This document shows, piece after piece, positions 4,541 to 10,846 of a stretch of 64,000 nucleotides of DNA; positions within the stretch are counted from its first letter, which is position 1; every line of letters begins with the position of its first letter. The stretch is from an uncultured Chloroflexia bacterium (GTDB lineage: Bacteria; Chloroflexota; Anaerolineae; JAAYZQ01). The notes under the pieces are model-generated. The model was given only the letters and a program-made list of their open reading frames with translations. It did no database searches and had not been told where the DNA came from. The translations under genes and the position numbers were made by a program. Location of the stretch: positions 1,600,001 to 1,664,000 of the forward strand of contig CAVOXA010000001.1 of the NCBI GenBank assembly GCA_963700285.1. Direction: 5' to 3'.

Positions 4541-4571
4541 AAAGAGAAAGGCCGGGTAAGAAACCCCGGCC
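4541..4571 (-). terminator. Intrinsic terminator after the aldolase-Fae genes
   Basis: GGCCGGG/CCCGGCC stem followed by TTTCTCTTT on the minus strand. Confidence 0.65.
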
Positions 4572-4594
4572 TAACATTCCATCGATCCAGATAC

Positions 4595-6071
4595 CTACGG
4601 CGCGTAGCGGAACGGGTGCCGGGCAGCTTCCTTCTCGGCAACCAGCTCCTGCAGCGTCGGCCGTTCCTCCAGGGCCTTGCGGATGGCGCCGCGCATGGCT
4701 TTATAGTTGTTGATCTTGACCCGCTGGCGGATGCTCGCCGCGGGATGGACAAAGACGTTGGCGATAAGGCAGATATCGTCCAGGATCGCTTCCGGCAGGT
4801 TGTGATATTCGACGGCGTGTGCCAGCGCCAGGTTGATGCCGCTGGCCGCCTCTTCGTAGACCAGTTGTTTCGCCTTTGCGCCGCGCACGGTGACAGTAGG
4901 CACCAGCATTGTCAGCGGCCGCTCGTTGATGATCACCAGTTCATGCCCGGGGCGCGCTTCGTTTCTGGCCCGCTCCAGGGCTCTGCCCACCGGCCCCTCT
5001 TTCCTGCCCAGCAGCAGATCGATGTGGGCCACCTCGGAGAAGGGCGGCCCGGCAAAGCCTTCGCCCACGCAGAGCGTCAGGTCGCCCGAGGGAGCGGGTA
5101 GGTCGGCTGGCAGGGCGTACTCGACCTCCTTGCCTCCCAGGACCACCGCCTGGGTCGGGATCTTGCCCAGGATCTCGAGTTGGCTGCGCAGGTCCTCGTA
5201 ATCTTCCCTCTCAAACTCGCCACCCTGGATCAGGGGCGAGCGGACGTTGCTCATGCCCGGCAGGCCCATCATGCGTAGCCCTTCTTTGACCGCCTGGGGC
5301 GCCCCCTTGCGTACCAGCAGCCGGGTGAGGATCTGCAGATTCCTTCTGTCGTCGCTGCACGAACTCGGCGTCGCCCCGCTGCGCAGCCTGGTAGATCTCC
5401 TGCCAGACGTCGGGTACGAGGTTGGCCGAGGCCAGGATGGCCCCGTCGGCGCCGGCCAGCAAGGCCGCGCCGACGACCTCGTCGTGGCCAACAAAGAGGC
5501 TGATGGTACCCTTGAGTTTTTCCAGGGCGGCCATAAAGAAGGGAATGTCTCCCGAAGAGTCCTTCATGCCGACGACGTTGTCAAAGGCCAGGCCCATGCC
5601 CTCGGCCGTCCACCACCGATAGTGGGTGCCGGCGGTCTGGGGGATGTTATAGAGCACGATGGGCAGGCCGATCTTGTCCACCTGCTGGTAGTGGTCGAAG
5701 ACCTCATTGAAGGCTGGTTTGAGAAAGTAGGGGGAAACCACCAGAGCCCCGGTCACCCCGGCTTCCTTGGCCCACTGGGTCAGTGCCAGTGTCTCCAGGG
5801 TGCTCTGGCAGCCGGTGCCGGCCAGTACGGGTACCTGCCCGGCGACCTCGTCGATGCAGATCTCGATGGCCCGCTGTTTCTCCTCCAGCGTCATCGAGCT
5901 GAATTCGCCTGTCGTACCGCAGGGTACCACGCCGTTGACGTGGGGCAGTACGAAGCGGATCAGCTCGCGGTAGGTGTCCTCGTCCACCTGGTCGTCAGCC
6001 GTAAACGGAGTGACCAGGGCGGGGTAGATTCCCTTGAACCATTCAGGTTTCTTGCTCTTCTCTGGTGTCAT
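4595..6071 (-). CDS. DHDPS/NAL-family class I aldolase fused to a C-terminal formaldehyde-activating enzyme (Fae)-like domain, copy A (frameshift near 5340)
   Basis: GTTGEF, LYNIP, GMKDSSG; then VGEGFAG..EVAHIDLLLG..NVFVHP..NYKA..HPF, resembling Fae. Confidence 0.85.
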
Positions 6072-6072
6072 G

Positions 6073-7505
6073 TTATTTCACCTCCGCGAAGGCATCGTCG
6101 ATGGCGACGCAGGTCGCTCTGTAGGCATTGTGGTGCAGCACGCGTCGGTCCAGGGCCTGGGGATGCACGGTGGCCTGGACGAACATCACGTCAGCATGCA
6201 TCGCCCCTTCCGGGATGACTCCCTCGGCCAGCTTGTCGACGATAGCCTTGGCCACAGCGTTCTGTACCGGGCCGTAGATCATGTTTGCCTGTCGCAGATC
6301 CTTCAGTTCGTTGGTGGGCACGATCAGCGTGCTGGGTCGCACCGTCAGGTTGGGCTCCAGGATGGTAGTCAGAGCTTCAAGGCCGTGGCGCGGGTAGGTG
6401 AGCTGGTAGGCCCAGGCCTCGCCCAGCGGGCCGTCTTTGGCGCCAGCCAGCAAGTCAATCTGGGTCGATTCGGCGCCCTCGCCGGCGCTGCCGGTGCCGG
6501 TCCGCATTCCAGCCGTACAGATCGTATCCGCCCTCAGCCCCACAGCCCTCGAACCGGCCATCCAGCGGCCCTTTCGGGAGGTAGTGCTCGGCGGGCGGCG
6601 GCTGGATCTTGCCCAGTTTCTCCAACTCGAGCTGGATCTCGGCCCGGTCCTCGTGGAGCAGAGACCCGCCAACGCTCTTCAGGGGACTGCGCGGCCGTCC
6701 AGCGTCTACGCCCATCATCTTGAGCGCCTGTTTGACCGGAACCCCGCCGCCATAGCGGCAAAAAATGCGGGAGAGCTTTTGGACCTGACGCTGGAGGGTC
6801 CGGGCGGTGCCGAGATCTCCCGACTGGACAGCCCTCAGGACCGCTTGCCAGACCTCGGGATATACCTGGGCCGAGGCCAGAATCACGCCCGCGGCGCCGC
6901 CGGCCAGCCCGTTCAACACGACCTCATCGTGGCCGATGAGGACGTTGATGCGATCGCCGGCGTATTCCAAGATCTCCATGGTGTAGGTCAGGTTGCCTGA
7001 CGAATCCTTCAACCCGACGATGTTGGGAATGTCTGCCAGGTCTTCGACCACGCGGCGGGGCAGGTAGGCGTCCACGACCTGGGGAATGTTGTAGAGGATG
7101 ATGGGCATCTGCGGCAAGGCTCTGGTGATCTCATAGTAGTGCTGGTAGATGACCCTTGTCGGACGGATGGAGGAAATAGGGCGTCACGATCAGACAGGCG
7201 TCTGCCCCAGCTTCCTCCGCGCCGAGTGCCAGGTTGATGGCCTGCCGGGTGCCCGGCGCGCCAGTACCGGCAATGACCGGTTTGCCCTGGGCTTCCTCAA
7301 CGGCAATTTGCACCAGGCGCTTGTTCTCCTCGGGTGTGAGGTAGTTGAACTCGCCGGTGGTGCCGCAGGGGACCAGGCCGTCCACGTCGTCGATCACGTG
7401 GCGAATGAGGTTGCGGAAGGCAGCCTCGTCCACCGACTGATCCTTGGCAAAGGGTGTGACCAGGGCGGGGTTCACGCCGCCCGGTCGGAACGGTTTTTCG
7501 ATCAT
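6073..7505 (-). CDS. DHDPS/NAL-family aldolase fused to a Fae-like domain, copy B (frameshifts near 7150 and 6550)
   Basis: GTTGEF, LYNIP, GLKDSSG; then GEGAESTQIDL..ILEPNLTVRPSTLIVP..QANMIYGPVQNAVAKAIVD..EGVIP. Confidence 0.8.
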
Positions 7506-7625: not shown

Positions 7626-8897
7626 CTACTTGTGCAGGTTCTGGGCGGCGATGAAGGACAGACCCTTCTCGGTCAGCGCCCGAGCGGTACGATTCACGGC
7701 GTCGTGCTTGTCCAGGTAGTTTCGCTCGCAGGGCGTCCCAGTCGCCCGATTCCAGGATCTTCAGCTTTGTCGCGGAAGTAGTCCAGGATGTCGGATGGGT
7801 GGTCGCGGGTCTGGTCCAACTCTGGGGCGCCGCCCTCGTGCTTGGCCGAGATATTGGGCACGCGGGCGGCCAGCTCGACCAGTTCATCGGTGCGGTCGTA
7901 GGGCTGTCGGACGATGTGCTTATAGGTCTCGGTGATGTGGTGCTCAAAGCGGACGATATCCTCCAGATTCGAGCGCTTTCCGTACCTGGGCAGTGAGTTC
8001 GATGGTCTCGTTGTTGACCGAGTTGCTCCAGTTGAAGCCGATCAGAGAGGTCGTTCCATCGTCACGCCCAAAGAGCTTTGCGCCGATGAGGGTCCACAAC
8101 GCTGCGTAGGGATTGTCATTGCCCATAAAGACCGAGATCTTGAACTCGATATCCACTCCCAGCTTGTGGAGGAAATAGCCCAGGAGCACGGTGCCGGGAT
8201 TGATGTTGAGTACCTGTTTGATGCCATAGTTGGTATAGTAGTACAGGAACTCGTCGAGCCACTTGAGCGCGTGGTCGTTGGGCTGGCCGACTCCCCCAAA
8301 GTAGCCTGTGATCGTCTCTGGCCCGCCCAGGTGAATGTTGGAGCCATCGGTACCCTTGGTATCCAGGGTTTCGACATAACTTGCGCCCACGATCTGCATG
8401 GCAGCAGCCACGGCCAGAATATCGCCCTGGTCTGCCTCCTGTTCCTTCATCTTGCGGACGCGGATAAAGCGACCTGGCATCAGTTCGCCGTTGGCAATGG
8501 CCTGACTGGCCTCGGTGATGAGAAAGGGAAAGTACTGCAGGGCGCTGATCTCGAGGGTGACGGCAAAGTCATCCGCGAAATCCATGGTGCTGGCCCTGGC
8601 GCCCAGGACTTTGTGGCGATAGTCGGCCACGGAGATAAAAGCGCCAGCGTCGCGCTGTTCCATCAGCCATTCCAGGTCAGCCAGATAGGGAGAGCCTGTC
8701 CGTTCCAGGCGGCCGAGCAAGCGGGGCAACTGGCGCGCCTCGTCGGCCTTTTGATTGATCTCATCCACGCTGCCATACCTGGCCACGACGGCCAGAAAAT
8801 CGCTGATGACCTGGGTATTGGGATCCAGCAGCAGGGAGTTGATCTCTTCGAGGCTGTTCGAAGAGATTCTCAGTCGGTTGCGGAGATCACTTTCCAT
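7626..8897 (-). CDS. Hypothetical cytoplasmic protein, about 420 aa (frameshifts near 7960 and 7720-7760)
   Basis: ORF 7944-8897 continues in other frames as DIVRFEHHITET..KHEGG..HPSDILDYF..KHDAVNRTA..NLHK-stop. Confidence 0.75.
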
Positions 8898-9035
8898 AAG
8901 TCCCTCCTCCTATGTCTTTTGGCAAGGGTTCGCCGTCAAGGACCCGGATGGGTCAAGGCGTCCATTATAGCATGGAACGTGGTGACTGTCATCTTTTGCG
9001 ATGTGGGCTGAAGCCAACAATGTGGAGGCAAAGCA

Positions 9036-9071: not shown

Positions 9072-9148
9072 TGGTACCCTCGGCGCGATTCGAACGCGCG
9101 GCCTTCTCCTCCGCAGGGAGACGCTCTAATCCGCTGAGCTACGAGGGC
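9072..9148 (-). tRNA. tRNA-Arg(GCG)
   Basis: GCCCTCGTAGCTCAG..TCTCC-CTGCGGA-GGAGA..GTTCGAATC..GAGGGTACCA cloverleaf. Confidence 0.93.
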
Positions 9149-9153
9149 ATGTA

Positions 9154-9245
9154 GGCGGGGAGGCAGGGATTCGAACCCTGGGAGGAGCTATTAACCCCTC
9201 AACCACTTAGCAGGCGGCCCCAATCGTCCACTCCGGCACCTCCCC
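9154..9245 (-). tRNA. tRNA-Ser(GCT)
   Basis: Anticodon arm GCCGC-CTGCTAA-GTGGT, long variable arm, GGTTCGAATCC; full CCA not encoded. Confidence 0.92.
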
Positions 9246-9321
9246 CCTGTTTCTTTTCCGGCCTTGGCCTCTGGACCTTCGACCTTCACTCAGGATGAAC
9301 CATCGAAAACCCAGAGTTGAT

Positions 9322-9411
<90 letters not shown>

Positions 9412-9577: not shown

Positions 9578-10846
<1,269 letters not shown>

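Follow-up and report, generated by a model that had tools for sequence, protein, structure and literature searches.

Two aldolase-fused Fae paralogues of Anaerolineae with reciprocal motif loss and a predicted shared cleft

Fae is a stand-alone homopentamer that uses tetrahydromethanopterin (H4MPT); its pterin is bound in a cleft between subunits, and His22 is the catalytic residue. In the archaeal bifunctional Fae-Hps, a Fae domain is joined with a formaldehyde-producing or -consuming aldolase. PanB shifts a one-carbon (C1) unit between methylene-folate and a 2-oxoacid, and the archaeal α2β2 tRNA-splicing endonucleases exemplify how a homomer can be subfunctionalised into a heteromer. The window analyzed here, a stretch of 64,000 nucleotides from contig CAVOXA010000001.1 of assembly GCA_963700285.1 (a genome estimated to be 89% complete; all coordinates are window positions), contains a three-gene unit on the minus strand, in which an orphan gene (8897–7626) is followed by gene B (7505–6073) and gene A (6071–4595). 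Genes A and B each encode a DapA-family aldolase barrel with a C-terminal Fae domain. An earlier note on this DNA had proposed that the two Fae domains have lost complementary motifs and jointly form one active site in an obligate hetero-oligomer.

With Fae of Methylobacterium extorquens (1Y5Y/1Y60; PF08714; TIGR03126), the two domains share the fold, A retaining His22, Asp24, Thr73, and HPF, and B the PNL loop and GPxQ, and the predicted A–B contact joins the two faces. The difference is that the motifs are split over two aldolase-fused paralogues, that Lys71 is Thr, and that most carriers lack Mch. Passages of PMC8879981 describe the role of Fae in formaldehyde condensation. Fae-Hps (NF009833) follows the same logic as is proposed for the pair, a Fae domain joined to a formaldehyde-making or -using aldolase, but it is one gene with a whole site, and the partner in A and B is an N-terminal Schiff-base barrel of the DapA family (PF00701), not hexulose-phosphate synthase; A and B score 70–100 with NF009833, over the Fae part only, against a cut-off of 274. 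Like class I aldolases of the DapA/DHDPS family (PF00701; TIGR00674), both copies contain a TIM barrel with GTTGE, YNIP, and KDSSG, but they lack Arg138, have Phe at the Tyr107 position in 90% of B, carry the Fae domain, and are kept together as two paralogues. With PanB (PF02548) and the engineered 4-hydroxy-2-oxobutanoate (HOB) aldolase step of the homoserine cycle, the pair would have the net chemistry in common, the joining of a 2-oxoacid with methylene-folate or formaldehyde; the folds are unrelated, the design of the pair is a two-site one, and the link is genomic alternation beside the orphan gene, not homology. The α2β2 endonucleases resemble it in duplication, reciprocal loss, and two mutually dependent subunits, but in A and B it is a ligand cleft between subunits that is split, with the predicted consequence that a ring no longer assembles. 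The A/B pair is a real, conserved, and undescribed variant: no paper on a DapA–Fae fusion or a split Fae site was found in open-access full text, supplements being outside the search. Its genes and domains are as follows.

6073..7505, minus strand: gene B, DapA-family aldolase plus Fae domain; 474–478 residues in most intact relatives; frameshifts at ~7150 and ~6543–6584
6076..6522, minus strand: Fae domain B; LTYP/EAL, EPNL loop, and LRQANMIYGPxQ kept; His22 replaced by Gln, Thr73 by Glu, C-terminal arm gone
4595..6071, minus strand: gene A, DapA-family aldolase plus Fae domain; 487–492 residues in most intact relatives; frameshift at ~5341
4598..5107, minus strand: Fae domain A; Glu11, His22, Asp24, Thr73, Phe119, and HPF arm kept; 58–62 loop deleted, GPxQ lost

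Reciprocal motif loss and the predicted A–B contact

In both proteins, Pfam identified pieces of DHDPS (PF00701) followed by the Fae domain (PF08714), the two Fae domains scoring 108.7 and 123.6 bits (gathering threshold 27). The motif differences described in the earlier note were all recovered on the minus strand. Copy A contains EVAHIDL (5035–5015) and HPF (4618–4610) and lacks both the PNLxxxP loop and MxGPxQ, reading VYEEAASG (4861–4838); in the alignment to 1Y5Y, this corresponds to a five-residue loop deletion and loss of GPxQ. Copy B contains ILEPNLTVRP (6363–6334) and NMIYGPVQ (6285–6262), reads ESTQIDL (6471–6451) with His replaced by Gln, and ends at AEVK-stop with no HPF tail, a substitution and a truncation in the same alignment.

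Motif columns were numbered on the canonical stand-alone Fae of locus L091, whose His is position 22, and conservation was scored over 66 A and 93 B sequences taken from genome loci. Glu11, Ala21, His22, Thr73, Phe119, Asn134, and His-Pro-Phe 164–166 were 97–100% conserved in A (His22 in 66/66, the HPF tail in 64/66) and lost in B, where position 22 was Gln in 82% and residues matching HPF were present in 0/93. Pro58, Leu60, Gly85, Pro86, and Gln88 were 99% conserved in B (Pro58 and Gln88 each in 92/93) and lost or deleted in A, where the 58–62 loop was missing from 100% and the Gln88 position was Ala in 88%. Because the kept and lost motifs are near-invariant across these sequences, the reciprocal split is family-wide and not due to chance. 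His22, PNL/GPxQ, and the HPF arm never occurred in one chain of A or B; the full set was present only in the pair, or in an undivided family. This family, P0244, was the one cluster with both motif sets returned, beside A-type and B-type clusters, by a profile search of 1.84 billion representatives; its named members are Lokiarchaeota/Promethearchaeota, with Hodarchaeota among its relatives. Asp24 was conserved (94–100%) across A, B, and the undivided form. In a Fae-domain tree, which includes the trait's own columns and one outgroup, A, B, and the undivided form each fell on one side of a branch (98/92, 99/96, and 100/97), whereas a quick tree of the DapA domain left the deep forks unresolved; as judged from these sequences, A and B may go back to a single ancient split. 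A further protein, P0245 (474 residues), has a barrel of the B type, but its Fae domain is strongly degenerate and lacks both motif sets; it is nested among bacterial B in the quick tree.

Whether A and B always co-occur had been named as a check on the earlier proposal, and neither was commonly found alone. Among 401 genomes of the class Anaerolineae (one of which, G351, enters only the class-wide denominators), PF08714 matches were present in 90 (below, the carriers): two matches in 81, one in 6, and three in 3. Most two-match genomes were typed by match extent only (1–158 versus about 2–140), and those pairs that were cut out for checking consisted of one A and one B. Five of the six single matches lie at contig ends (G009, G093, G134, G390, and G243), the start of A being visible in G093; the sixth genome, G091, has one frame of 375 residues (L129 1336–2460) in which the start of a B-type barrel leads into an A-type Fae domain, a chimera resulting from deletion between the paralogues or from misassembly. 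At genome loci anchored on B, A was present in 68/80, and in 62/66 with at least 2 kb downstream; for the four roomy loci without A, plus one more, A was found elsewhere in the genome in 5/5. At metagenome loci anchored on A, B was present in 68/80, and in 42/44 that had 2.5 kb or more upstream. Gaps were measured in 52 of the 58 linked pairs; B and A were separated by no more than 30 bases in 31 of these, and separations reached 2.5 kb.

A model of Fae domain A (predicted local distance difference test, pLDDT, 86.9) had 1Y60 as its best fold match (E 6.8e-15, TM 0.78, 27% identity). ESMFold2 was then applied to FaeA and FaeB, as a 1:1 heterodimer only and with the A and B alignments supplied, together with three controls. 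The predicted dimer had an interface score (ipSAE) of 0.80, compared with 0.00 for the best of the three controls; the mark used for this score is reached by 116/157 solved complexes and 2/215 mismatched pairs. The dimer runs shared at least 86% of their contacts, with partner pLDDT of at least 86. In the best run, the A side of the interface comprised strands 1–2 (Glu11, His22, and Asp24), residues 69–73 including Thr73, Asn117, and the RHP tail, and the B side the end of the LTYP helix, the ILEPNLTVR loop, helix 3, and Gly85. The degenerate motifs were absent from the named interface residues, an unnamed residue counting as uncertain. As two ring-like contacts are possible, it is the direction of the modelled contact, from the His22 face of A to the PNL face of B, that is informative, and both the predicted contact and this direction are very likely correct.

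The conservation of the two faces was compared with that in 113 undivided sequences. As the model that defines the faces had the A and B alignments as input, the comparison is not fully independent of these. On the face used by A, mean column conservation was 0.90 in A, 0.47 in B, and 0.92 in the undivided form; on the face used by B, it was 0.50, 0.81, and 0.89, respectively. This contrast, computed without the tail and the deleted loop, exceeded 20,000/20,000 permutations and came first among 138 circular shifts. Among the columns that are fixed in the undivided form, A alone keeps 22, of which 12 map to its own face, 10 lie outside both faces, and none is on the face of B; B alone keeps 13, with 7 on its own face, 6 outside both, and none on the face of A. 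The retained motifs, for which the earlier note had asked whether they share one face, thus occupy opposite faces, and these come together in the predicted dimer.

The composite site suggested earlier is supported by this face map and by the co-occurrence of A and B, but complementation is incomplete. Both window copies carry Thr at the position of Lys71, which we take to be a ligand contact in Fae, and this residue cannot be supplied by either partner. Of the suggested hetero-oligomer, the A–B contact is predicted, whereas only one of the two ring contacts survives, which makes a capped 1:1 dimer likelier than a mixed ring: with the second face of each domain apparently degenerate, a closed ring could not form, which would leave a capped A–B dimer as the unit. 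Each pair therefore probably forms one such Fae dimer, most plausibly within an AB or A2B2 enzyme, and a capped dimer would suit the even-numbered assemblies of DapA better than a five-membered ring would. The pair would also be obligate. At the level of structure, this interpretation is likely right.

Helix 4 of Fae domain A (window 4640–4730) contains Arg129, Asn133/134, Lys136, Arg143, and Glu147, which never vary in A or in the undivided form but are missing from B and, for the most part, from canonical Fae; they lie outside the modelled Fae–Fae interface. These residues could possibly form a docking surface for the aldolase barrel.

Barrels, carrier, and alternation with a PanB paralogue

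For the barrels, the residue roles of DHDPS in E. coli numbering (Thr44/45, Tyr107, Tyr133, Arg138, and Lys161, with Arg138 serving aspartate semialdehyde) are presumed to apply. The positions of the GTTGE threonines (Thr44/Thr45), Tyr133, and Lys161 were 99–100% conserved in the 66 A and 93 B sequences, which shows the Schiff-base residues to be intact in both barrels. The in-trans Tyr107 position was Tyr in 76% of A, compared with the Phe prevailing in B, and the Arg138 position was never Arg (Cys/Thr in A, Val/Thr in B, and Cys in the undivided form). The A and B barrels also carry different invariant surface motifs, for example, HxxWWTxEG at 147–155 in A and YLPRxVxEDL in B, of which the undivided form is a mosaic; these would fit heteromeric barrel contacts as well.

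Mch matches were found in 14/90 carriers versus 19/311 other genomes, 76/90 carriers having none. The genome of the window, at its completeness of 89%, yielded no match for Mch or RFAP synthase, and it encodes formyltetrahydrofolate synthetase (FTHFS) and acetyl-CoA synthase; folate is therefore the likelier carrier in this genome. For most of these bacteria, the pterin is probably other than H4MPT, and tetrahydrofolate is slightly favored as their carrier. One genome (G369) contains, in addition to an A/B pair and Mch, the canonical stand-alone Fae of L091 with both faces and Lys71.

The orphan gene upstream of B belongs to a very conserved family of ~422 residues, present in 97/401 genomes of the class, 21 of them carriers of the pair. 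No Pfam or NCBIfam match and no usable Atlas match were obtained for it, and a fold comparison with its AlphaFold model (pLDDT 71) gave nothing more specific than generic TIM barrels, many of them tied (best Z 10.9). This barrel adjoins the A/B pair in 14/80 loci. In its place, a U32-like barrel (316 residues; L025 3928–4887 and 26 other loci) is near the pair in 27/80 loci; the two were never found together in those loci and show weak similarity around an FK[IV]S motif (hhalign probability 34%).

PanB was searched in 236 of the 401 genomes. Where the orphan barrel was present and the pair was not, PanB was found in 72/76 genomes and adjacent to the barrel in 51/76, compared with adjacency in 0/19 tested genomes carrying both pair and barrel. 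In a PanB tree (19 of the 20 fetched sequences), six of the seven sampled barrel-adjacent copies formed their own clade (100/99), and all seven stood apart from the PanB of four pair-plus-barrel genomes, which grouped with second, non-adjacent copies. As partner of the orphan gene, the A/B pair thus alternates with a PanB paralogue; this hints at hydroxymethyl transfer of the PanB kind. Plain replacement of the pantothenate PanB by the pair was not supported as stated, since 22/80 tested carriers keep some PanB versus 46/80 genomes with neither pair nor barrel. Replacement of homoserine dehydrogenase was supported only partly: the enzyme was lacking in 25/90 carriers versus 18/311 others (23 of these 43 genomes without a match being deduced from gaps in the match listing), but 9 of the 25 are one family. 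According to passages of PMC8879981 and bioRxiv 10.1101/2025.02.17.638773, the reaction of pyruvate and formaldehyde to HOB is non-native chemistry of promiscuous enzymes, and PanB of P. putida partially rescued growth for the HOB step.

The proposed enzyme and its alternatives

The His22 face of A and the PNL/GPxQ face of B would together form one pterin-binding cleft, through which formaldehyde is likely passed to and fro between the aldolase barrels and a carrier of the folate type. The net reaction would be methylene-carrier plus 2-oxoacid to hydroxymethyl-2-oxoacid, in either direction, so that the C1 transfer of PanB would be carried out in two steps, by a Fae site together with the pyruvate aldolase to which it is coupled. 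We give this reading as a whole, a cleft shared by A and B that exchanges C1 units with the barrels, a probability of about 0.6. The exact pair of substrate and product is more tentative: a PanB-like net reaction, most simply pyruvate to or from HOB, falls somewhat short of even odds. It is doubtful that every detail holds at once, that is, a two-subunit aldolase plus half-Fae enzyme that uses tetrahydrofolate and passes formaldehyde between methylene-folate and pyruvate (giving HOB), as a convergent replacement of the PanB paralogue.

Several observations weigh against this reading. The genomes are related, and neither the co-occurrence nor the PanB counts are independent. The dimer score may stem from likeness to the solved Fae pentamer (1Y5Y/1Y60), showing likeness and not binding, and the model had been given alignments made for this analysis. 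Gln88, Pro86, and Phe119 themselves are outside the named interface residues. The Lys71 position is Thr in 100% of A, 61% of B, and 100% of the undivided form, and the Fae domains of four intact relatives score 108.7–116.9, with 116.9 and 112.5 for the two domains, near misses of the TIGR03126 equivalog cut-off of 118.05. Mch is somewhat enriched in carriers (14/90 versus 19/311), and one divergent Ftr-like match (88.5 bits; G000 C10 172186–172629) is present in the genome of the window, which is 89% complete and has no Mch or RFAP synthase match. The orphan barrel occurs in only 21/90 carriers, and three sampled carriers without it do have a non-canonical PanB. Finally, homoserine dehydrogenase is kept in 65/90 carriers, including this genome, which also has aspartate kinase; the pair is therefore not needed here for homoserine.

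Some of the same observations would suit a heteromer whose cleft is real but merely binds folate, a pterin, or another ligand to regulate the aldolase, with no formaldehyde activation: Lys71 is lost in all forms, Mch is missing from most carriers, the scores remain under the Fae equivalog cut-off, and small domains behind amino-acid-pathway enzymes are, as general knowledge has it, often regulatory. However, His22 is 100% conserved in A and the undivided form, Asp24 is 94–100% conserved everywhere, and C1 transfer would be in keeping with a PanB paralogue that alternates with the pair next to the orphan barrel gene, so that a purely regulatory cleft is unlikely. It is improbable that A and B each form a homo-oligomer of their own and act, with different new functions, in one shared pathway. 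Some pairs are indeed unlinked in the genome (5/5 checked) or up to 2.5 kb apart, each barrel keeps its own catalytic residues, and modelling was confined to the A–B heterodimer, but each domain conserves one face while relaxing the face that a homo-ring needs, and the retained faces dock on one another in the model. About as improbable is a larger closed mixed ring (e.g., A-B-A-B or A3B3) with one catalytic and one structural interface. It could account for the seven positions of helix 1 and its neighbors that make contacts in both faces, and for the partial conservation of B's His22-side columns (0.66 in the core), and folding was confined to a 1:1 model; its second contact, however, would require the missing C-terminal arm of B and the deleted loop of A, and conservation on these faces is 0.47–0.66 versus 0.78–0.91 on the used faces. 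An ordinary lysine-pathway DapA pair with decaying Fae appendages, as the source name of the relatives (4-hydroxy-tetrahydrodipicolinate synthase) and the TIGR00674 dapA scores of B (217.3 and 214.3, cut-off 206.15) would have it, is very improbable given that A stays below that cut-off (191.6 and 184), that the Arg138 position is never Arg in any of the three forms, that dozens of Fae positions are invariant, which is not decay, and that further DapA-like genes exist elsewhere in this genome.

If the pair is a folate-linked pyruvate hydroxymethyltransferase, it would provide anaerobic heterotrophs having the Wood–Ljungdahl pathway with an extra C1 route, would supply a specialised enzyme where synthetic methylotrophy at present makes do with promiscuous aldolases, and would use tetrahydrofolate in a fold known only for methanopterin. 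A C1 step described only from engineered pathways would then have its natural counterpart, in about a fifth of the sampled Anaerolineae genomes. Sediment Chloroflexota and archaea commonly carry the A/B genes, and because these are annotated as DapA of the lysine pathway, genome-based models probably assign them the wrong reaction. The pair also illustrates cleanly how the active site of a homo-oligomer can be divided in nature between two halves that depend on each other, and the undivided form can still be compared with it; single-gene tests of A or B would likely show no Fae activity.

Locus layout and assembly

The remaining features of the unit are the following.

8964..8992, minus strand: sigma-70-like promoter match (ATGACA-17-TATAAT, extended −10) upstream of the three-gene unit; consensus match only, 3 found versus 1.5 in shuffles
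7626..8897, minus strand: orphan TIM-barrel gene, ~422 residues in relatives, with single-base extras at ~7970, 7758, and 7728; the looser partner of the pair
6072..6087, minus strand: B/A junction with the Shine-Dalgarno-like motif GGAGGTGA within the last codons of B; the stop of B is 1 base ahead of the start of A
4549..4572, minus strand: intrinsic-terminator-like hairpin (8 pairs plus T run), 23 bases 3′ of gene A; consensus match only, 5 found versus 4.1 in shuffles

The junction would allow translational coupling of B to A. Related loci are named Anaerolineae/Chloroflexota, plus a few Thermodesulfobacteriota and Myxococcota, and intact relatives up to 92–94% identical over the Fae domain are single unbroken proteins; a genome of the same genus has its own single break, at another place than those in the window genes. 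Because of this, the frameshifts in genes A and B are likely assembly errors. That A and B are pseudogenes is unlikely, their breaks being single-base extras relative to the same-genus genome, whose own break differs in place. Beside these frameshifts, PanB of this genome was likewise found split over two frames. An assembly artefact behind the missing tail of B or the deletion in A was ruled out, since both recur in intact relatives; the intact B relatives P0121 and P0122 have the same short C-terminal end as B of the window.

Just upstream of the unit, the window contains tRNA-Arg(GCG), tRNA-Ser(GCT), tRNA-Ser(TGA), and a seryl-tRNA synthetase (9072–9411 and 9578–10846); the synthetase frame appears out of register in its middle part. 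A NUDIX hydrolase lies 3′ of gene A in 11/80 genome loci (L015 7982–8509 and 10 others), which are close relatives of this genome's family; in the window, gene A is not followed by it.

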